Shown here in pieces: positions 4,254 through 53,596 of a stretch of DNA of 64,000 bases. The stretch is from UHGV virus genome UHGV-0033546; one strand, given 5' to 3'. The position numbers and the translations under genes were made by a program. The stretch is from a virus. Within the stretch, counting starts at the first letter, position 1; every line of letters starts with the position of its first letter. The notes under the pieces are model-generated. The model saw only the letters and a list, made by a program, of their open reading frames with translations. It did no database searches and had not been told where the DNA came from.

Positions 4254-5096
4254 TTAATCAACTGCTATTGGATGAATAGCATTAAACTTATGAAATGCTT
4301 CTGATTTTTCTTTACGCGAAACACACATACGAAGAACCTTTAATGGCTCGTCTTCTTCACCCAACGATTTTCGTTTTTCAATATTAGAAGTTTTCCAACG
4401 AGCTTGCTCTGGAAACTCTCTATTGATTTGCTCAAGAGCTCTATTATGTTTTGAATTACTACGAATTGAACTACACCCACCAGGAGCTTGTGCTTTTCCA
4501 GATACAACTAGATATTTGAACAAGGCCAAATGCGGATAACCTTGATTAATTAAATTGAGAAATGCATACATATCTTCGCATAAATCAATTTTTCCATACC
4601 CAATTTGTTCTGTGGTAAGTTTTCCTAAATCATACCATGTATTTGTGAATCCATATGAATTTTCACGATAATTACCCCAAGATGAAGTAATTTTAAAAAT
4701 TGGTAGACGAGCATGGCCATGATAATACCCGCAATCCATGGCATCTTCAACGTATTGAATCAATTCATAGAACTGTTCACGAGTTAATTGATTAATTTTA
4801 TCTACGCAGCGACGATCATCTTTCTTTCGCATTGAACTCATACGAATAGTAGTATCATCATCAATCATCCAAATTCGTTGACCTGCATACATATCAGTAA
4901 TTGCTTTACGAGTACCAGCAATTCCGTTAACATCATCAGGAATAGTTATAATTTTAGCTCTAGACCCGTAAGCGTCATAATAAGCTTTTTCTTCATGTTT
5001 ACGCACTACAATATGGGGTTCATAATCAGTCGGAAACATATCAAGGGCAGAAACTGCCCCGACACGCTGATAACTTGGAATTACGAATTGAATCAT
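4254..5096 (-). CDS. GT-A fold glycosyltransferase, 280 aa, at the locus occupied by beta-gt in T4 (possibly a beta-glucosyl-HMC-alpha-glucosyltransferase type enzyme)
   Basis: N-terminal FVIPSYQRVG strand and DDD (DxD) motif typical of GT-A enzymes; ATG at 5096 in ATGA overlap with gene 42 stop; 280 aa versus 351-aa T4 beta-gt and not alignable to it by eye. Confidence 0.55.
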   Translation of the reverse strand: MIQFVIPSYQRVGAVSALDMFPTDYEPHIVVRKHEEKAYYDAYGSRAKIITIPDDVNGIAGTRKAITDMYAGQRIWMIDDDTTIRMSSMRKKDDRRCVDKINQLTREQFYELIQYVEDAMDCGYYHGHARLPIFKITSSWGNYRENSYGFTNTWYDLGKLTTEQIGYGKIDLCEDMYAFLNLINQGYPHLALFKYLVVSGKAQAPGGCSSIRSNSKHNRALEQINREFPEQARWKTSNIEKRKSLGEEDEPLKVLRMCVSRKEKSEAFHKFNAIHPIAVD

Positions 5097-5833
5097 TTCC
5101 ACTCACCATTATAATCTTTTTTCGCAATATGAGTTTCGCCAGTATTCCACCAATGGTCAACCAAATAAAACTGATTTTCGTACACATGAAGACTTCCGAC
5201 ATTCCATATAATAGAACCTGCTTTATACTGTCGTGATGGGTCGCCTGCATTCAAATCAGATACTAATTTATCTAGTACGTATTTTTGCCACGCATAATCA
5301 TTACGATAGCCTGCCCAGCAGTCATTGCTTCTCATATTAACAACTGCATTGACTTTCTTATCACGAATCAGGTACTGTACTGTATTAGTACACATGAAAT
5401 CTGACATGCCGTCTTTGTTGTAGTCAAACTGCATAGATGGACGAGTATAAATCATGATACCACGCCGAGAATCAGGATTTTGACCAAGTTCAGCTAAACA
5501 CATATCATACTGGGCATAGTTATTTTCTGACCAGATAGCCCAACCATAATTCGAGTTAATTTCGCCTTTAGAAGATGCTACCTGCTGCCAAATCTTTGGT
5601 GTTTCACCTGGAATATCTTTAACAAACAAGCTCTTAGATTTATACCATTCAAGTTCACGCTGAATGTATTCATCATTAAGAGCGCCAAAAATAAACGGTT
5701 CATCTGCTACAAATGATGCGCCAATAATTTCAATAGTTTTAACACCAGTTTTATCAACTACGAAATCTTTTTCCTTTAATGCAAGCCCCAAATGAAGACG
5801 GATTTCTTCAACTGTCATAGAGTCACTAATCAT
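5093..5833 (-). CDS. 42: gp42 dCMP hydroxymethylase, 246 aa
   Basis: 246 aa; sequence from MISDSMTVEEIRLHLGLALKEKDF onward matches T4 gp42 as recalled. Confidence 0.92.
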   Translation of the reverse strand: MISDSMTVEEIRLHLGLALKEKDFVVDKTGVKTIEIIGASFVADEPFIFGALNDEYIQRELEWYKSKSLFVKDIPGETPKIWQQVASSKGEINSNYGWAIWSENNYAQYDMCLAELGQNPDSRRGIMIYTRPSMQFDYNKDGMSDFMCTNTVQYLIRDKKVNAVVNMRSNDCWAGYRNDYAWQKYVLDKLVSDLNAGDPSRQYKAGSIIWNVGSLHVYENQFYLVDHWWNTGETHIAKKDYNGEWK

Positions 5834-6245: not shown

Positions 6246-6626
6246 TCACTTAGTCAAATTTTTTACACATGAATTATAAGAATTCACTACATACTCCATC
6301 GGAGCATTTTTACCAGTACGCCATTGGTAATTATTAGCCCAATTAGCCCAAAGTTCGGCACAGTAGTTTTCAATTTTTTCTTCGCGTGTAATTACATCTG
6401 AATTACGATATGCTTGAGCAGATTCATCTGGACGAATAGCCTCGTCAAAATTCGCCTGCATTTGTTCTACCGTCTGTTTTGGAGCTTCTTTATAACACTT
6501 GACGTTAGGATTATAAAACTTACTTGAACAGTTTACAATTTTTCCTACATCAGATTGATTTACTACCGGTCCTTGAGCTACACAACCAGTAAGACCCAAT
6601 GCAATAACTAAAATAGTGATTTTCAT
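6246..6626 (-). CDS. small lipoprotein (imm.1 position), about 126 aa
   Basis: ATG at 6626 with GGAG SD; lipobox LTGC in MKITILVIALGLTGC; the longer track ORF (to 6815) would run through the promoter and terminator. Confidence 0.5.
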   Translation of the reverse strand: MKITILVIALGLTGCVAQGPVVNQSDVGKIVNCSSKFYNPNVKCYKEAPKQTVEQMQANFDEAIRPDESAQAYRNSDVITREEKIENYCAELWANWANNYQWRTGKNAPMEYVVNSYNSCVKNLTK

Positions 6627-6660
6627 TTCATTCTCCAAATCTGTATTGGTTGATAGTTGT

Positions 6661-6689
6661 ATAGTACCATGGAAGAACAGGGATGTAAA
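6661..6689 (-). promoter_or_regulatory. early-type promoter: -35 TTTACA (6689-6684), spacer 17, -10 TACTAT (6666-6661), AT-rich UP element upstream
   Basis: Minus-strand reading; lies between gene 43 terminator hairpin and the imm.1 ATG. Confidence 0.45.
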
Positions 6690-6777
6690 TAGTTTTGTGA
6701 AAAAATTTTTAATGAATTTACAGGACCTAGAATCATCTATTTTTCCTAAGTATAGATTTATATTACTTGTATGAAAA

Positions 6778-6795
6778 AGGGACCCGGAGGTCCCT
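6778..6795 (-). terminator. intrinsic terminator after gene 43 (7-bp stem, tetraloop, U5 tract)
   Basis: On transcript: AGGGACC-UCCG-GGUCCCU followed by UUUUUC; starts 13 nt after the gene 43 stop. Confidence 0.55.
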
Positions 6796-6807
6796 AGATT
6801 TATTCTA

Positions 6808-9504
6808 TCAGCCAAACAGGAAGTCTAACGAAGCTTTTTCCTCATAGTCCATACCTGCAGATTCACACATACCCGCAAGCGGTTTAACAAACGATTTTTG
6901 GAACAAAGTTGAGTAGTCAATCCAAGACAGTACGTCAGAACGAATTTCTTTTGGAAGTTCCGTACCCGATGGCCAAGCAATGCACTTATCACCAAATGGA
7001 TTTCCTTCACGTAATGGAAGAACCATTACCTTATTTCCATCCAAAATTGGAGCTACACCTAAACCGTTAACAGCTCGACGATAAGTTAGTACACCACGAA
7101 TATGGAACGGACATTTAAATCCTGGCCAACCTTTATCATCATATTTCGCTATATCGTTCGCAGTTTTTACTTCAGCAATAACTTTATAGTCAAGTTGACG
7201 ATATTCTTTCTCGAAGTTCTTGTAATATTCTTGGACAGACTCTTCACCTTCCTGAAGAATACGACGAATACTTTCTTCGAGAGCTTCTTGGACCGCTTTA
7301 GGCGTTGAGCTCTGCTGAGTTTCCATACCCATGATTTTTAGATGCGGTTCGGCAAATCGCTTATCTTCCATATCATAAACGTTCAGAGCATAACGTTTTT
7401 TCGCTTTCCAAAATCCACCGACACCCTTTGAACCAAGCGGAGGGCAAGAAATAGCTTCACGGTCCATATGCATCAGATGCTCGCGGTTATTCATATAATC
7501 ACATAACTCGCGATATGCAACATCAATCATAGGTTCCATCTTTTTCTTACCGAACTGATTCATGAATTCAACTAAATCATTTTGTTCTTTAAAGCGATCA
7601 AGACCTACTTTTTCAATAACTTTATCTACACAAACATATACCGAATCAGTATCACCTGCTGCGATGAAATCTTCACCATTAGTTCCACATACTTTATTCA
7701 GATATTCATTAATTTTGCGAGCAATCCACTGAATACCGACTTGACCGAAAATTGTGATAGCAGTAGCATTTCGCAAATCATAGTAACGGAAATGAATATT
7801 ACCAAGAGCACCATAAAGACTGTTAATAAGAATTTTACGGTTCAGCTGATTTGTGTTAGCAAGTGTAGCAGCTTTTTCACATTCTTCAATCAGACTATTA
7901 AGAACAGATTCGGTGTAATTCGATAATTCGTTTAAGAAATCATCACTGAACTTAACATATCGTTCAACTTCTGGTTTAGTTGAGCAAGACCCTGCACCTT
8001 TCATAATAATCTTTTTAATAGCTTCGGCATTCATTTCTTCCGCGAACATTTTCTTTTTCCAATCTTTACGCTGGAAAAATACTTTAGCGATTTCCTTTGG
8101 AATGATACCTTCTTGGTGCTTATCATACATCCATCCATTCGGAGAGCAAGAATATTCATCACTTGGCTTAGGAGCTGTTCCTGCGATATATTCATGAATT
8201 GGATGAACTTTAAACTGCCCACGAATAGTCTCAGGACTAATGTTAACCTGACGAATAATGCTAGGATACAGAGACGTCAAGTCAAAACTCATAATGTATC
8301 GACGAGCAATCGGTTTAGGTTCAAACACAAATGCACCTGGAAAACTCTGTTTAACGTGCGAACCTTGTTGAGGAATAACCTTATGTTCACCTTTCAATGA
8401 GTTAAAAATAATAGCATCCCAAGTTTTAATAGGACTCATTACACCAGAAAAAGGCATTTTAGCATAATAAGACATACTTAAAACTAGATCGATAAACCCA
8501 CGAATTTTATCAATTGCTTGAACTGATTCTACGTCAATGATGTTATAACTAATGTATCGTTGATGATTAGTCTCACGAAGTTTATTAATAGGACCATCGT
8601 ACGGCAATTTACCTTTTTTGGTTTCATGTTGAGCAACTGATTCCAAAGAGAATGACGGCAAATTAGTAAAAGCGAATTTCTTGTACAAATCTAAATAATC
8701 AAGAATAGATACGCCATCAATAGAATAAATTTCTTTGCTACCATACATATTTTGAATTAGTTTAGATTTTACTCGACCGATTGGAGAGAAGCGTTTCATA
8801 CTGCGTTCGCCCAGAACCATTTTAACACGATTCATGATATACGGAACGTCAAATCCCTCAATATTCCAACCGGTAAAAATAGCAGGTCGTTTCTGTTCCC
8901 AGAGATTAATATATTCCATGAGCATATCACGCTCATTATCGAATGGCATATAAATTACTCGGTCAAGAATTTCTTGAGGAACTTCATCACCACCTTCACA
9001 GTCAAGCTTAGCAGCTAACTTTGCATCCCATTTTGATACTGAACCGTACATTGAATTCAAAAGGTCGAAAACATAAAAACGATCATCAATTGAATCATAA
9101 TGGGTGATAGCATCAATTTCATATTCTGCTTTCATTGGGTCAGGAAATTTATCACCAGTAACCTCAATGTCGCAGTTAGCTACACGAACAAATTTTCGGT
9201 CATAAACAATTTCTGAACCATATGTATCACTGATATAAGCGAGTTTAAAATCGTTCATACCAAGAGCTTCGAGACCGATGTCTTCCATTCGTTTCATCCA
9301 ATCTCGGGCATCTTTCATTGATGGAAATTTTTGAGGAGCACAGTTTTTACCGTAAATGTCTTTGTACTTTGACTCTTCCTTACAGTGCCTAAACATAGTC
9401 GGAAGATATTCTACTTCGCGAGTACGTTCCTTTCCGTTTTCATCAATATAACGCTCAACAATGTTATTTCCGACTGTTTCAATAGAGATATAAAATTCTT
9501 TCAT
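6808..9504 (-). CDS. 43: gp43 DNA polymerase (family B), 898 aa
   Basis: 898 aa; exonuclease and polymerase motifs (DTDS); N-terminus MKEFYISIETVGNNIVERYIDENGKER and C-terminal DFLFG match T4 gp43 as recalled. Confidence 0.97.
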   Translation of the reverse strand: MKEFYISIETVGNNIVERYIDENGKERTREVEYLPTMFRHCKEESKYKDIYGKNCAPQKFPSMKDARDWMKRMEDIGLEALGMNDFKLAYISDTYGSEIVYDRKFVRVANCDIEVTGDKFPDPMKAEYEIDAITHYDSIDDRFYVFDLLNSMYGSVSKWDAKLAAKLDCEGGDEVPQEILDRVIYMPFDNERDMLMEYINLWEQKRPAIFTGWNIEGFDVPYIMNRVKMVLGERSMKRFSPIGRVKSKLIQNMYGSKEIYSIDGVSILDYLDLYKKFAFTNLPSFSLESVAQHETKKGKLPYDGPINKLRETNHQRYISYNIIDVESVQAIDKIRGFIDLVLSMSYYAKMPFSGVMSPIKTWDAIIFNSLKGEHKVIPQQGSHVKQSFPGAFVFEPKPIARRYIMSFDLTSLYPSIIRQVNISPETIRGQFKVHPIHEYIAGTAPKPSDEYSCSPNGWMYDKHQEGIIPKEIAKVFFQRKDWKKKMFAEEMNAEAIKKIIMKGAGSCSTKPEVERYVKFSDDFLNELSNYTESVLNSLIEECEKAATLANTNQLNRKILINSLYGALGNIHFRYYDLRNATAITIFGQVGIQWIARKINEYLNKVCGTNGEDFIAAGDTDSVYVCVDKVIEKVGLDRFKEQNDLVEFMNQFGKKKMEPMIDVAYRELCDYMNNREHLMHMDREAISCPPLGSKGVGGFWKAKKRYALNVYDMEDKRFAEPHLKIMGMETQQSSTPKAVQEALEESIRRILQEGEESVQEYYKNFEKEYRQLDYKVIAEVKTANDIAKYDDKGWPGFKCPFHIRGVLTYRRAVNGLGVAPILDGNKVMVLPLREGNPFGDKCIAWPSGTELPKEIRSDVLSWIDYSTLFQKSFVKPLAGMCESAGMDYEEKASLDFLFG

Positions 9505-17914: not shown

Positions 17915-17932
17915 AAAGGGCCGAAGCCCTTT
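17915..17932 (-). terminator. hairpin with UUCG tetraloop overlapping a-gt stop
   Basis: + strand AAAGGGC-CGAA-GCCCTTT; 7-bp stem. Confidence 0.45.
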
Positions 17933-19133
17933 ATTTTGTAATAATGTCAAACTGTTCTTTAAAGCAGAAGCTTGAATCTTGATGCTGATACAAAAATTCA
18001 TAAGCTTTTTCTCGCTCACGGTCATAAAGAGCTCGGTCAGATGACAGTTCTTTAATACGCTCGAATGTCGATTCCATGTCATTTTCGTCAAACCAAACGA
18101 TACCGCTATCATGAGAAATTAACGGAGTATTATCAACACGGAATTTTAAATTTTCGCCAGTAGATTTCCAAAATACCGGAATTGTTCCACACGCTCCAAG
18201 CTCGAGATGAGTATATTCTAAAGAACGTTGTAGATATTTTTTGTCCAACTTACTCAACTGATAACCAAAACCGGATTTACTCATGCGTTCAAGCATTTCG
18301 CTATTTACATAACGATCAAGAATTTGCGTTGGCAAATTAGGAGCAATTTTAATTTGGTCTACTTGATGAAGACGATAATACTCGTATGGAATTCCTTTTT
18401 CTTTAATAGGAATGAACGCTGGAGAACGTTCCAGACCTTCCATAATAGTACTTAGCCCAGCAGGTTTAAGATGTTTTTCGTGGAAATCAAACATCTGATA
18501 AAAACCTTTCCATGTAGTCGTACGACCAATCCAACGATTGACATTCATGTTAATTTTAGAAACATCTTTCCAGTAGGTTGATCGAACCTTCGCAATATCC
18601 ATAGGAGGCTGAAAGTTGTATACAGTCGGTGCTTCTTCAATATCATCAAACAGAGAAACCGTTTCTGGATACCATTCTTTCATCAAAACTTTATTAAAAT
18701 CGCCATTATCAGAATGACTAAAAATAACATCAGCTCGACGAACAGTTTCTTCTAATCCCAAATTTCGACGCAAAGAAAGAGAAGAATGGTCATGTTGATA
18801 AACTACAACACGAACCGAAGGTTTAATGTTATCAATAATTTTTTTATAGTTATTAATAGTGTCTTCTTCGACTGAAGTAGCAGGAACTGAATTGATAATT
18901 AGAATATCACAATCATTTACCAGCTTAAGCGTTTTATCATATTCTTTTGCCAATAAAACCGGAATTGAAAATGATTTATAATCATGTGCGCAATTACGAG
19001 TAAATGATTTATCTTTAGCATAAACCAAAGTTACTTCATGACCATTTTTAATAAACCAATCACGTTGCTCGAGAGAAAATTTAGTTACACCACAACCTTC
19101 AAGACCCCGAGCCATAAAAATACATACTTTCAT
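17931..19133 (-). CDS. a-gt: alpha-glucosyltransferase (DNA hmC alpha-glucosylation), 400 aa
   Basis: 400 aa; sequence close to T4 alpha-gt as recalled. Confidence 0.9.
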   Translation of the reverse strand: MKVCIFMARGLEGCGVTKFSLEQRDWFIKNGHEVTLVYAKDKSFTRNCAHDYKSFSIPVLLAKEYDKTLKLVNDCDILIINSVPATSVEEDTINNYKKIIDNIKPSVRVVVYQHDHSSLSLRRNLGLEETVRRADVIFSHSDNGDFNKVLMKEWYPETVSLFDDIEEAPTVYNFQPPMDIAKVRSTYWKDVSKINMNVNRWIGRTTTWKGFYQMFDFHEKHLKPAGLSTIMEGLERSPAFIPIKEKGIPYEYYRLHQVDQIKIAPNLPTQILDRYVNSEMLERMSKSGFGYQLSKLDKKYLQRSLEYTHLELGACGTIPVFWKSTGENLKFRVDNTPLISHDSGIVWFDENDMESTFERIKELSSDRALYDREREKAYEFLYQHQDSSFCFKEQFDIITK

Positions 19134-43459: not shown

Positions 43460-43673
43460 ATTTGACTTCCTCGCCAGTACCCAAATCATATTCAACTAAA
43501 CGAATAGGTTCATGAATGCCATATCCTTGAACAGAAATTTCTGTCGTAGGATAAATTCCATCAATATCACCCATATTCCATGCCTCATTAAATTGTTGTT
43601 CGCCTGAATTACTAAACCATTCAGCGAAAGCATTTAGTACATCTTCAGAACCTTCAATAATTATCTTTGCCAT
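43452..43673 (-). CDS. hypothetical acidic protein, 73 aa
   Basis: Track ORF. Confidence 0.45.
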   Translation of the reverse strand: MAKIIIEGSEDVLNAFAEWFSNSGEQQFNEAWNMGDIDGIYPTTEISVQGYGIHEPIRLVEYDLGTGEEVKYD

Positions 43674-44035
43674 TATAAGCTCTCAGTAAAGGTACGAGCG
43701 ATAACGTCGCGCTGCTGTTCCGGAGTCAGAGAGTTAAAGCGAACTGCATAACCGGATACACGGATGGTCAGCTGCGGATATTTTTCCGGATGCTTAACTG
43801 CATCTTCCAGAGTTTCACGACGCAGAACGTTAACGTTCAGGTGTTGACCACCTTCAATTTTAACTGTAGGCTGTGACTCAATTTCAATTTCACGGGCATG
43901 CAAACCATAGAAAATTTCTGGGTCTACAAAAGAGTCCTCTTTAAAAGTTTTAGAGACAATAATTCGTGCTTGAATACCATCTTCAAAATAAATAGTACCT
44001 TTATGTGTGCCTTCAAGAATTTGATATGCTTTCAT
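43673..44035 (-). CDS. autonomous glycyl-radical cofactor (GrcA/YfiD-like), 120 aa
   Basis: Glycyl-radical signature RVSGYAVRF near C-terminus in a PFL-C-terminal-like 120-aa protein. Confidence 0.6.
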
Positions 44036-44041
44036 ATAACC

Positions 44042-44371
44042 TCAATTAGAAAATAAATTTATCCAAGATTGTTCTTTAATTAAAAATGGCTCAGAATCAT
44101 ATGCCATTAAACTTTGGGTAATTAATCCTTTAAATGGTCCATCAATAAATTCCATTGTAAAATATGGAATTTTATTCATTAACCGTGCATTAGGAGCAGT
44201 GCACAAAACTCTGCATCCTTTGAATACACCTTTCTGTAATTTATATTGCTTGGGATAAAATTCGCTCAAGACGTTGTTATTTGCTAAAATTTCAAAATGA
44301 TTCACCAACTTATTTTTAATAGTTTTTGGCGAAAAATAAAGATATTCAAAAAGCTGCGCATCTGTCATCAT
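44042..44371 (-). CDS. hypothetical protein, about 109 aa
   Basis: ATG at 44371 in ATGA overlap with upstream stop (track start 44422). Confidence 0.4.
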   Translation of the reverse strand: MMTDAQLFEYLYFSPKTIKNKLVNHFEILANNNVLSEFYPKQYKLQKGVFKGCRVLCTAPNARLMNKIPYFTMEFIDGPFKGLITQSLMAYDSEPFLIKEQSWINLFSN

Positions 44372-44907
44372 TGCATTCCAATTACGAAAAACTGTGGACG
44401 AGTAATACCACCAATGCAACATTTACTATTGCAGCAGTAGTGTACAGTGTCCATATGGGCGCTATAAATCTTATCCATATCAGGAGATTTAACAGGCTCA
44501 TCAATTATATACAAAATTCGCGAAAGCGATAAACCTATAAACTTGCTTCCTTTATTACCAATAAAACTACGGACAGAATCGGTAAATAAACGAAAACGTA
44601 TATCGTCATTAGAATAACGCGAAAATTCCTTTTTGATGTTATCTGCAGAAATTTTAGCGTAAGCTGAAGTATTAGAAAGAACAATAACTGTTCCGCCATC
44701 ATACAGCCAATTAGCAGCAAAGTTAGTCACAGCAGTTGATTTACCGGATTGACGTCCACCATCTAGTCGAAGAGTGCAATACTGTTTAAGCAAGTCTTCA
44801 AATGGCAAGATATAATCGTTTTTACAAATTTCTTCTACTCTAGCATCAGAATGGTGTGTAAAAGCATTCATCAGGGATAGATAAGGACCAGTCAAAAATG
44901 TTCTCAT
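44368..44907 (-). CDS. P-loop NTPase-like protein, about 179 aa
   Basis: Walker A GGRQSGKST; ATG at 44907 has the best SD (AGAGAGAA); track start 44955. Confidence 0.45.
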   Translation of the reverse strand: MRTFLTGPYLSLMNAFTHHSDARVEEICKNDYILPFEDLLKQYCTLRLDGGRQSGKSTAVTNFAANWLYDGGTVIVLSNTSAYAKISADNIKKEFSRYSNDDIRFRLFTDSVRSFIGNKGSKFIGLSLSRILYIIDEPVKSPDMDKIYSAHMDTVHYCCNSKCCIGGITRPQFFVIGMQ

Positions 44908-45060
44908 TTTGTTCTCTCTAGATTTGGGCCATTCCATGGCACATGAATTGTCCATTCCTGTATTTACCCATTACCGCGCCCGGGCTCGACCTTATTACAG
45001 GTTGGCGGGAATCCCTCACAGAATCATGAGGTCCAGGTTGTTCCCATGTTATTTACTGTA

Positions 45061-45534
45061 TTATTTAAATGATTTGACGTACTGAACAGAACCTTTGCTA
45101 TTCACGAAAGCGATTTTACCATTTTTGTTATACATGGTAGCAGTACGCTGATAGCCATAAGTTTGCTTACCAGATTGATAACCAACTAATGCAAAATTAT
45201 CTTCGCCCATTTTATTCTGTTTAGCACGAATACGCTCATGACCGTGAGCCATAAGAACCTTAGCATCGCCAGTTGCAATGGATCTACGAGTTTTTTCATC
45301 TTCAACTGTATTAACAAAGTCGTCAAATGAATCAAATTTAGCATGAGATTTATTATACAGTTTTCCATCTACTGCATAATTATATCCCTGTACATCCATC
45401 TCAACTTCTGTACCATCATCCAATACAGCAGTGATTTTTTGACCTTTTTTAAATTTCAAAAGATCAGTAAAAGATTCAGCAATAATTTGAGAATTAATAG
45501 CTGCTTCAGTGATAAATTCTTGATATGTTTTCAT
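45061..45534 (-). CDS. internal-protein-like head protein with capsid-targeting leader, 157 aa
   Basis: N-terminus MKTYQEFITEA matches the T4 IP capsid-targeting sequence (cleavage expected after ...E-A); body unlike T4 IPII/IPIII by length. Confidence 0.6.
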   Translation of the reverse strand: MKTYQEFITEAAINSQIIAESFTDLLKFKKGQKITAVLDDGTEVEMDVQGYNYAVDGKLYNKSHAKFDSFDDFVNTVEDEKTRRSIATGDAKVLMAHGHERIRAKQNKMGEDNFALVGYQSGKQTYGYQRTATMYNKNGKIAFVNSKGSVQYVKSFK

Positions 45535-45543
45535 GTGTTTCCT

Positions 45544-45960
45544 TTAAATGTAAATATTTTTACCGTAATACTTATACCAGTGTGGTTTCATTAAAATTTT
45601 TTCATCGAGTCGTTGTTGACTCAACTTAATAGCTGATTTGCATGGGTTATAATCATTTTTCCATTCTACTGGAATATCGCTGATGTCAGGAACTTCAGTA
45701 TCTTTTATACTGAACCCGCGTTTTAAGCATTCCGTTATAATGTCTGATTGACGCTTTCGCAAAAATTCTAACTTATCGTAAAAGAACGTAACATGACCAG
45801 AACCTAAAATAAACTCGGAAGATATTTTAAAATCTTTAACTCTCTTACCATTTGCCACATGTTTACGAACTATACCAAAAACGCGTGGCAATTCACGGTA
45901 TTCTGCAATTAAATGCTGATCAGCAAGTTCAGATACTAAAGTCAAATTAATACGAGTCAT
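45544..45960 (-). CDS. denV: DenV endonuclease V (pyrimidine-dimer DNA glycosylase), 138 aa
   Basis: 138 aa; [17 protein letters not shown]...[10 protein letters not shown] conserved with T4 DenV, diverged in C-terminal half. Confidence 0.85.
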
Positions 45961-46019: not shown

Positions 46020-46550
<531 letters not shown>

Positions 46551-51235: not shown

Positions 51236-51311
51236 TGGTCGAGGCAGTAGGGATCGAACCTACGACCTAGGACTTAGAAGGTCCTTGCTCTTCCTTCTGA
51301 GCTATGCCCCG
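51236..51311 (-). tRNA. tRNA-Arg (anticodon UCU), CCA encoded
   Basis: Manual cloverleaf: acceptor CGGGGCA/TGCCTCG, T-arm GTAGG-TTCGATC-CCTAC, anticodon loop CUUCUAA. Confidence 0.85.
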
Positions 51312-51315
51312 TAAT

Positions 51316-51391
51316 TGGGGTGACCGATGGGAGTCGAACCCATGACTACGAGAATCACAATCTCGAGTTCTACCAACTGAACTACGGCCAC
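51316..51391 (-). tRNA. tRNA-His (anticodon GUG), CCA encoded
   Basis: Manual cloverleaf: acceptor GTGGCCG/CGGTCAC, D-arm GTTC-AGTTGGTA-GAAC, anticodon loop UUGUGAU, T-loop TTCGACT. Confidence 0.8.
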
Positions 51392-51505
51392 ATTAATACC
51401 TACTCCAACAATCAAGATGTCTTCACACGAAATTAAGAGAAGAATGATCAGTTCAACCCTTATAATCGCGTCAAGTAGATATTAATGTGACAGTTGTCAC
51501 AAATT

Positions 51506-51580
51506 TGGCGGACATGCATGGATTCGAACCATGGACCAATTGATTAACAGTCAACTGCTCTACCACTGAGCTACACATCC
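51506..51580 (-). tRNA. tRNA-Asn (anticodon GUU), CCA encoded
   Basis: Manual cloverleaf: acceptor GGATGTG/CATGTCC, anticodon loop CUGUUAA, T-arm CATGG-TTCGAAT-CCATG. Confidence 0.8.
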
Positions 51581-51584
51581 AAAT

Positions 51585-51671
51585 TGGTGGGGAGTGATGG
51601 AGTCGAACCACCCGAGTCGCAATGACAATGGATTTACAGTCCACACCGCTACCTCTACGGGATAACTCCCC
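51585..51671 (-). tRNA. tRNA-Tyr (anticodon GUA), type II with long variable arm, CCA encoded
   Basis: Acceptor GGGGAGT/ACTCCCC, anticodon loop CUGUAAA, 15-nt variable arm, T-loop TTCGACT. Confidence 0.75.
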
Positions 51672-51684
51672 CTAATTCATAATT

Positions 51685-51759
51685 TGGTGGCCCTGGGTGG
51701 AATTGAACCACCATCTGGCGATTATGAGTCGCTTGCTTGAACCTTCCAGCTACAGGGCC
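51685..51759 (-). tRNA. tRNA with anticodon CAU (Met, or Ile if lysidine-modified as in the T4 tRNA-Ile)
   Basis: Acceptor GGCCCTG/CAGGGCC perfect 7 bp, anticodon loop CUCAUAA, T-arm GGTGG-TTCAATT-CCACC. Confidence 0.8.
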
Positions 51760-51760
51760 T

Positions 51761-51836
51761 TGGTGCTGATTGACGGAATCGAACCGCCGACATCCTCATT
51801 ACAAGTGAGGTGCTCTACCTACTGAGCTAAATCAGC
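51761..51836 (-). tRNA. tRNA-Thr (anticodon UGU), CCA encoded
   Basis: Acceptor GCTGATT/AATCAGC, anticodon loop CUUGUAA, T-loop TTCGATT. Confidence 0.85.
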
Positions 51837-51841
51837 AAAAC

Positions 51842-51931
51842 TGGCGGAGGCGATAGGATTTGAACCTATGAGTCGCCGGAGCGACTGCCGGTTTTCAAGA
51901 CCGGTGCATTAAACCACTCTGCCACGCCTCC
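51842..51931 (-). tRNA. tRNA-Ser (anticodon UGA), type II, CCA encoded
   Basis: Acceptor GGAGGCG/CGCCTCC, anticodon loop CUUGAAA, long variable arm. Confidence 0.85.
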
Positions 51932-51933
51932 AG

Positions 51934-52007
51934 TCTCCATACAAGGATTTGAACCTTGGACCTCCTGATCCCAAATCAGGCGCTCTACCAAACTGAGCTA
52001 CACGGAG
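51934..52007 (-). tRNA. tRNA-Pro (anticodon UGG), CCA not encoded
   Basis: Acceptor CTCCGTG/TATGGAG, anticodon loop UUUGGGA; 3' end is 2 nt from the tRNA-Ser 5' end. Confidence 0.85.
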
Positions 52008-52017
52008 TAAATTAAAT

Positions 52018-52091
<74 letters not shown>

Positions 52092-52096
52092 AAATT

Positions 52097-52183
52097 TGGT
52101 GCGAGAAGTGGGACTCGAACCCACAAGGAAATCATTCCGCAGCATTTTAAGTGCTGTGCCTTTACCAATTTGACCATTCTCGC
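52097..52183 (-). tRNA. tRNA-Leu (anticodon UAA), type II, CCA encoded
   Basis: Acceptor GCGAGAA/TTCTCGC, anticodon loop CUUAAAA, long variable arm. Confidence 0.85.
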
Positions 52184-52184
52184 G

Positions 52185-52257
52185 CTGGGAATAAAGGACT
52201 CGAACCTTTGCATCCTGGAATCAAAATCCAGTGCCTTACCAACTTGGCTAATTCCCA
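52185..52257 (-). tRNA. tRNA-Gln (anticodon UUG), CCA not encoded
   Basis: Acceptor TGGGAAT/ATTCCCA, anticodon loop UUUUGAU; 3' end is 1 nt from the tRNA-Leu 5' end. Confidence 0.85.
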
Positions 52258-53308: not shown

Positions 53309-53596
53309 TTACAAAAGATTTTTAGCAATAATCTTGAGATGTGCTGCAGAAATGTGTTTAGCTTTAAACAACGCAGTTTCTTCAGCAGGAGAGATAACGA
53401 TTGTAGCACCATCCTTTTTAGCAGACCACCCATCACCTAGGTAAACAGTACCTTTGATTTCTTCGCCATCAACCAGACTAATCATTGGTTTACCTTCTCG
53501 TCCTTTATTTGCTTTAATAACTTCAGAAGTAAGAGTAGCCTCGGTAATGGTAGAAACCGGGGTAGTTGTAGAAGTAAATTCTTTGAAAGTTTTCAT
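53309..53596 (-). CDS. ipI: internal protein I (IPI), 95 aa precursor with capsid-targeting leader
   Basis: 95 aa; leader MKTFKEF...; body ...ATLTSEVIKANKGREGKPMISLVDGEEIKGTVYLGDGW matches T4 IPI as recalled; position next to 57B. Confidence 0.7.
   Translation of the reverse strand: MKTFKEFTSTTTPVSTITEATLTSEVIKANKGREGKPMISLVDGEEIKGTVYLGDGWSAKKDGATIVISPAEETALFKAKHISAAHLKIIAKNLL

Follow-up and report, generated by a model that had tools for sequence, protein, structure and literature searches.

An Ip4-type internal protein in virus genome UHGV-0033546 and its possible role against host restriction

The 157-aa protein encoded at 45061..45534 on the minus strand of the analysed stretch of virus genome UHGV-0033546 (64,000 nucleotides, hereafter referred to as the window) is, judging by its sequence, almost certainly Ip4, an alternative internal protein of T-even phages. 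The ORF consists of 157 codons plus the stop codon and runs from ATG to stop exactly as given in the preliminary description of this DNA, where no strand was named. The protein was considered novel in that description, which proved to be wrong, as it corresponds to the Ip4 of the RB32 annotation, UniProt Q38388, Pfam DUF7412 and PHROG 3155, with 471 phage records containing it. Ip4 was named in the 1990s, belongs to a well-described class and recurs nearly unchanged in hundreds of genome records; reviews credit the ten extra ORFs with an internal-protein leader, Ip4 among them, to Repoila et al. 1994.

Four points are added here on Ip4: it has a second conserved putative maturation site, which aligns with the one in IPI, no relative was found for it by fold or by sequence, purifying selection on it is strong, and its position beside gene e is kept across genera. 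Ip4 is proposed to be packaged, processed and injected and to bind a host defence nuclease, and we regard this proposal, taken as a whole, as evenly poised between right and wrong.

Identification and distribution of Ip4

The window protein matches Pfam DUF7412 (PF24183) with a score of 318.5 bits against a cut-off of 27 (E-value 1.1e-95), residues 1-157 being aligned with profile positions 1-158 out of 158, and PHROG 3155, annotated as "internal virion protein", with an E-value of 1.1e-101 over residues 1-157 out of 157. Its membership in the Ip4 family is supported both by this full-length match above the curated HMM threshold and by near-identity to curated Ip4 records. The RB32 protein (RB32ORF123c), annotated as 'Ip4, similar to T2, RB70 Ip4' and encoded by a 474-nt gene in the same place, has the same length and is 99% identical to the window protein, and the T2 copy is also 99% identical. 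The RB32 and T2 proteins differ from the window protein at one conservative residue, namely V150, which is I in both of them. The Ip4 of phage K3 (UniProt Q38388, 'Ip4 [Enterobacteria phage K3]') was retrieved in a search of a viral structure library with 98% identity and a TM value of 0.90. No match to Ip4 was found in NCBIfam or PADLOC.

The tblastn search revealed Ip4 in 471 GenBank phage records from at least three genera. In 307 of them the identity is at least 95%, the hosts being Escherichia, Shigella, Yersinia and other hosts of Tequatrovirus, and many of the deposited copies are 99-100% identical to the window protein. Another 160 records show 60-80% identity and belong mostly to Klebsiella phages of the genus Jiaodavirus, plus Salmonella phages of the genus Gelderlandvirus and Serratia phages. 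Between genera, the identity is 61-71%.

In the T2 record AP018813.1, the Ip4 gene (6430-6903) is labelled 'valyl tRNA synthetase modifier', and several small neighbouring genes are labelled as coding for tail, capsid or baseplate proteins. These labels look wrong and could mislead automated comparisons.

Gene location and neighbourhood

The ip4 gene is located between denV and vs.8, i.e. in one of the two hyperplastic internal-protein loci. Its ATG lies 9 nt 3' of the denV stop codon (45544-45546, minus strand) according to the reading of the sequence, and the Shine-Dalgarno motif AGGA (45540..45543, minus strand) directly follows that stop codon, 5 nt 5' of the ATG.

The gene order in the window phage and in BW-1 is e, denV, ip4, vs.8, compared with e, ipIII, ipII, denV, vs.8 in T4. 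RB32 and T2 have the order e, ip4, vs.8 and have lost denV; in RB32, remnants of both the start and the end of denV are left, indicating a clean deletion of this gene. Bas37 has the order e, denV, vs.8 without any internal protein gene, and in T6 everything from e through regB is deleted. In Jiaodavirus PKO111 and Gelderlandvirus Melville, the 3' end of e touches or runs into the ip4 homologue, with another internal protein gene coming next, so the synteny of ip4 with e is kept in three genera. The suggestion that Ip4 and IPIII are mutually exclusive was rejected, as ip4 adjoins ipIII in the Klebsiella phages KP17 and FRZ284.

According to the DNA alignment, the 105 bp located 3' of ip4 are homologous to the sequence which directly follows denV in T4, so ip4 has been inserted or deleted cleanly, as a cassette, at the junction of the denV stop codon with this conserved block. 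The gene is absent from T4, T6 and Bas37, as expected for an accessory host-range factor. The HIDEN-SEQ transposon data available for Bas37 were considered as a read-out of Ip4 fitness and ruled out, since Bas37 does not possess ip4.

The 105-bp stretch is GC-rich and is homologous to the 5' end of T4 vs.8. It was also considered as a possible tRNA remnant or structured RNA, which was not supported, with nothing detected by ARAGORN or in Rfam and an ordinary folding energy (z = 0.43). The GC-rich block between ip4 and vs.8 (approximately 44930-45045, minus strand) is almost invariant in the window phage, RB32, T2 and T4, whereas divergence in the genes on either side is around 5% or far higher. 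In T4, this block codes for the N-terminus of vs.8 (MRDSRQPVIRSSP...); in the window phage, RB32 and T2 the frame is interrupted, and the start of vs.8 lies further downstream.

Several features of the neighbouring genes were noted as well. The protein encoded by denV (45544-45960, minus strand) is 77.5% identical to that of T4, with 69% identity at the DNA level and saturated dS, whereas the adjacent gene e is 96% identical to its T4 counterpart, so there is a mosaic boundary between e and denV. The product of the vs.8 homologue (44368-44955, minus strand) has a weak similarity to P-loop ATPases and large terminases (PHROG 2 with an E-value of 7e-6; Pfam AAA_14 with 0.0014, which is below the threshold). 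The vs.6 homologue (43673-44035, minus strand) has a product of 120 aa whose C-terminal part is a glycyl-radical domain (Pfam Gly_radical, 2.4e-18); the corresponding gene in T4 and BW-1 is annotated as autonomous glycyl radical cofactor GrcA.

Transcription

Gene denV is an early gene and e is a late gene, and IPII and IPIII of T4 are proven head proteins. The only exact late-promoter motifs near ip4 are the two TATAAATA motifs located 5' of gene e (46528..46548, minus strand), and no terminator-like site was found between this pair and ip4. The homologous 8.5 kb of T4 contains the same two TATAAATA motifs only, with ipIII and ipII following e. As the nearest late motifs in both phages are the pair 5' of e, ip4 shares its transcriptional position with ipIII and ipII of T4. 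Late transcripts starting at the TATAAATA pair would thus be expected to reach ip4, although the pair is put forward here only as their putative source because the number of TATAAATA 8-mers in the window is not above chance.

Leader and probable packaging and processing

The N-terminal sequence MKTYQEFITEA had been taken in the preliminary description for the leader of T4 internal proteins, and it is indeed identical at 10 out of 11 positions to MKTYQEFIAEA of T4 IPII and IPIII (NC_000866 translations), the sole change being A9T. Codons 1-10 (MKTYQEFITE; 45505..45534, minus strand) are assigned to the capsid-targeting sequence by their match to the IPII/IPIII leader, with the first gp21-type site, ITE10↓A, at the end. 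A six-frame scan of the whole 64-kb window detected the leader pattern only at the N-terminus of ip4 and at ipI (53309..53596). The match is far beyond chance because the ORF that it begins has full-length matches to family HMMs.

In IPIII, the first 10 residues are sufficient for packaging, residues 4 and 7 having the greatest weight in targeting and residues 8 and 10 in processing (PMC9026906, review). All of these important positions are kept in Ip4: the key targeting residues are represented by Y4 and F7, and I8 and E10 form, at the sequence level, the hydrophobic-x-Glu motif of a gp21 site at positions 8-10. Residues M1, K2, F7, E10 and E20 are invariant in 14 members of the Ip4 family from several genera with 61-99% identity, and even the relatives with 34-37% identity still begin with MNFxxFLNE↓S. 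Such retention in distant members suggests that the leader has been kept by selection and therefore argues that it is used. In the T4 record X04567, residues -10 to -1 of IPIII are annotated as a removed peptide.

Codons 11-20 (AAINSQIIAE; 45475..45504, minus strand) code for a low-confidence linker with a second putative gp21-type site, IAE20↓S, at its end, as suggested by the motif scan, the profile alignment and the AlphaFold2 (AF2) model. The site was picked up by the motif scan, and all of the 14 aligned family members have E20 together with a hydrophobic residue at P3. In the profile alignment, E20 is aligned with E19 of the IPI maturation site (TITE19↓A), and residue 20 of the IPI of the window phage is the first one in the structure of IPI* (PDB 2JUB). 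In the AF2 model of Ip4, pLDDT is below 50 at residues 10-18, with disorder predicted through residue 20 and the fold starting from about residue 21. On the basis of this alignment, the first residue of 2JUB and the predicted start of the fold, we propose that the Ip4 propeptide may comprise 20 residues removed by two cuts, after E10 and after E20.

The body, which is folded in the AF2 model, is encoded by codons 21-157 (45064..45474, minus strand) and corresponds to the predicted mature form, Ip4*, of about 15.5 kDa with a pI of 9.3. Allowing for either cut, mature Ip4 would have 137-147 residues, a mass of about 15.5-16.5 kDa and a pI of 9.1-9.3, the mature form containing 22 lysine and arginine residues. 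From the features of the leader it appears quite probable that Ip4 is packaged and processed. Neither virion proteomics for Ip4 nor a direct report of Ip4 in virions or in cleaved form was found in the literature search.

Fold and relatives of the body

The preliminary description had pointed out that the body is unlike IPII and IPIII in size and has no recognizable motifs. Both statements hold: Ip4 has 157 aa compared to 100 aa for IPII and 193 aa for IPIII, and the structure prediction and profile searches performed here identified no sequence or fold relative of the body, including among IPI, IPII and IPIII. The AF2 model (pLDDT 77.7, pTM 0.73) consists of six strands and three helices. The sequence profile search against PDB gave no match with an E-value better than 0.5, the Foldseek search of the model against PDB had a best E-value of 0.27, with IPI* not being returned in the PDB fold searches, and the search of BFVD structures retrieved Ip4 itself only. 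Among 1.84 billion protein representatives, the profile search found eight with E-values of 1e-3 or below, four of which were at 1e-10 or below.

A relationship between the body of Ip4 and IPI or IPIII was considered because the full-length profile alignments reached probabilities of 65-85%. After removal of the leaders, the hhalign probabilities dropped to 0.6% for IPI and 2.1% for IPIII, which is close to the reversed-sequence controls, so the body homology was rejected, the values having fallen to the control level without the shared leaders. The IPII family, phrog_7857, is matched by the Ip4 leader only. The body thus shows no demonstrable homology to any characterized internal protein.

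The alignment of the close Ip4 family has a mean column identity of 68%. Residues invariant in the extended family are G31, V48, G50, K58, N61, K62, S63, A65 and L94, as well as N107, K108, A115, Q120, G122, G127, Y128, T131 and K157. No His, Asp or Glu is found among these body invariants, because of which we favour Ip4 as a probable binding protein rather than an enzyme.

Selection

Comparison of Ip4 with its RB32 and T2 counterparts gave dS of about 0.25 and dN of 0.003, i.e. dN/dS of about 0.01, and with the homologues from Klebsiella and Salmonella phages dN/dS was about 0.13. For lysozyme gene e in the same pairs, dN/dS was 0.01-0.02 within the genus and 0.16-0.23 between genera. Ip4 is under strong purifying selection and at least as constrained as lysozyme e; as its dN/dS matches or undercuts that of e, it is constrained like a housekeeping phage enzyme. 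IPIII is likewise well conserved across genera. Ip4 had been spoken of as a variable injected protein, but with dN/dS of about 0.01 within Tequatrovirus it is not a fast-diversifying one: the variability of Ip4 is that of presence or absence and not of sequence. Purifying selection of such strength is not typical of an arms-race inhibitor.

Proposed function and alternatives

Internal proteins are delivered with the DNA and therefore act ahead of any phage gene expression. IPI of T4 had been referred to in the preliminary description as an injected inhibitor of a type IV restriction enzyme, in agreement with the published data, according to which it is injected and inhibits GmrSD of strain CT596 (PMC12373910). 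Ip2 inhibits GmrSD/BrxU of ECOR21 and Ip3 inhibits the two-gene GmrSD of ECOR17, each of them being strictly specific (PMC12373910), and the leader-bearing protein Bas37_0260 inhibits McrBC (bioRxiv 10.1101/2025.11.20.689424). With type IV restriction enzymes as the targets of all four characterized members of the class, an anti-restriction role is a reasonable suggestion for Ip4 and the one most favoured here.

The idea of Ip4 as an anti-defence candidate is therefore a sensible one with a class precedent; nevertheless, it has already been published, and no reproducible GmrSD inhibition was obtained with ip4-10. In the work of Silas et al. 2025, ip4-10 were expressed in tests against GmrSD representatives from 15 groups, and the apparent hits were not reproducible (ip4 is matched here by name). 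T2 is restricted by GmrSD-ECOR21 and GmrSD-ECOR17 (PMC12373910), and it carries Ip4. By analogy with the class, Ip4 may be a specific inhibitor of a type IV restriction enzyme, a possibility which we place slightly short of even.

The distribution of Ip4 fits an anti-restriction role in phages with glucosylated hydroxymethylcytosine (glucosyl-hmC): among Klebsiella and Raoultella phages, respectively, 135 and 4 records contain Ip4, compared to 136 and 4 containing alpha-glucosyltransferase. A link between Ip4 and the T2/T6-type beta-alpha-glucosyltransferase was also considered and rejected; there is no one-to-one relation, since the enzyme is far more common (690 records) and T6 possesses it without Ip4.

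The window phage itself has genes coding for dCMP hydroxymethylase (4254-5102), alpha-glucosyltransferase (5093-5833) and a T2/T6-type beta-glucosyl-HMC-alpha-glucosyltransferase (17931-19133), all on the minus strand, the latter enzyme replacing the beta-glucosyltransferase of T4. Given this set of glucosyltransferases, its DNA modification should be of the T2/T6 type. The window phage carries IPI along with Ip4: ipI (53309-53596, minus strand) codes for a 95-aa T4-type IPI (PHROG 4363, Pfam PF11634), residues 20-95 of which are identical to PDB 2JUB (IPI*). There is also a cluster of 11 tRNA genes (51236-52257, minus strand) for Arg, His, Asn, Tyr, Met, Thr, Ser, Pro, Gly, Leu and Gln, the composition of which is unlike the sets of T6, RB32 and T2.

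The proposed mechanism would include four steps. Ip4 would be translated from transcripts begun 5' of e and denV, presumably including late ones from the two promoters of e. Its first 10 residues would then dock it onto the scaffolding core of the prohead, as suggested by their identity to the experimentally defined leader of IPIII. Next, gp21 would cut after E10 and probably again after E20, judging by the motifs and the alignment to the IPI site, so that the head would contain, alongside the DNA, a basic protein of about 15.5-16.5 kDa. Finally, by analogy with the four class members, mature Ip4 would be injected with the DNA and bind stoichiometrically to a host nuclease attacking glucosyl-hmC DNA, the likeliest target being a type IV (modification-dependent) restriction enzyme outside the panels tested so far.

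It is also conceivable, though rather unlikely, that Ip4 is packaged and injected while its target is something other than a type IV enzyme, namely another defence system or a host factor conserved in Escherichia, Klebsiella, Salmonella and Serratia. This would agree with the negative result for ip4-10 in the GmrSD panel and with a fold that has no known relative, and strong purifying selection together with the 61-71% cross-genus identity would be less expected for a target as hypervariable as the GmrSD family than for a conserved one. Put more specifically, Ip4 might be an injected effector of a previously unseen fold directed at a core host factor or at some other kind of defence against glucosyl-hmC DNA, and such a conserved target would explain the enzyme-like purifying selection, the retention across genera and the failure in the GmrSD panel at once; we consider it improbable. 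Against a target other than a type IV enzyme, all four characterized leader-bearing internal proteins inhibit type IV restriction, the distribution of Ip4 tracks phages with glucosyl-hmC, and the tests of Ip4 span a small part of type IV diversity, being confined to GmrSD.

Another explanation, to which we likewise give little weight, is that Ip4 is mainly structural, i.e. a basic lysine-rich filler which neutralizes or organizes the packaged DNA or aids core assembly and has no specific host target. The lysines of internal proteins contact DNA phosphates in T4 heads (PMC3012670), and mature Ip4 has a predicted pI of 9.1-9.3 and 22 Lys and Arg residues, with K58, K62, K108 and K157 being invariant in the extended family; strong purifying selection and the lack of observed anti-GmrSD activity would also be in line with such a role. 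On the other hand, T4, T6 and Bas37 build their heads without Ip4, the gene being gained or lost as a cassette, and charge neutralization alone does not need a well-folded body with a mean column identity of 68%. Moreover, IPI, IPII and IPIII are basic too, yet each of them has a specific target.

It is very unlikely that the leader is a mere relic and Ip4 an unpackaged cytoplasmic early protein co-expressed with denV, for even though ip4 begins 9 nt after that early gene, has no late-promoter motif of its own and yielded no virion proteomics in the literature search, its leader residues are invariant across genera and the leader is retained even in members with 34-37% identity, ipII and ipIII of T4, which code for proven head proteins, share the same layout 3' of e, and the late gene e runs up to or into ip4 in two further genera.

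With injection and binding to a defence nuclease as the preferred reading, Ip4 is of interest as one of the most widespread internal proteins, present in 471 phage records from several genera, many of which are candidates for phage therapy. Its target, once found, would probably bring to light an inhibitor-nuclease pair not seen before or else a new type of barrier raised by hosts against glucosyl-hmC phages, and would aid host-range prediction. The window copy of ip4 itself adds nothing new on this target.

Comparison with other internal proteins

IPIII and IPII of T4 resemble Ip4 in having a leader identical at 10 out of 11 positions, in their location in the hyperplastic region between e and vs.8 at a position 3' of the late promoters of e, and in being basic. 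They differ from it in length, with 193 and 100 aa, respectively, versus 157 aa, and in the body, where no homology to Ip4 is detectable (2.1% for IPIII). Besides, they inhibit GmrSD-ECOR17 and GmrSD-ECOR21, respectively, whereas ip4 showed no inhibition in the GmrSD panel.

IPI of T4 and its mature form IPI* (PDB 2JUB, PF11634) share with Ip4 the MKT(Y/F)xEF start, the aligned hydrophobic-x-Glu motif ending at residue 19 or 20, the small size and the basic character. Bas37_0260 also comes from a T4-like phage and is similar to Ip4 in joining an N-terminal packaging leader to a small body that is otherwise unrelated; it sits, however, at the ipI locus and is a different protein, the two being set apart here by their descriptions.
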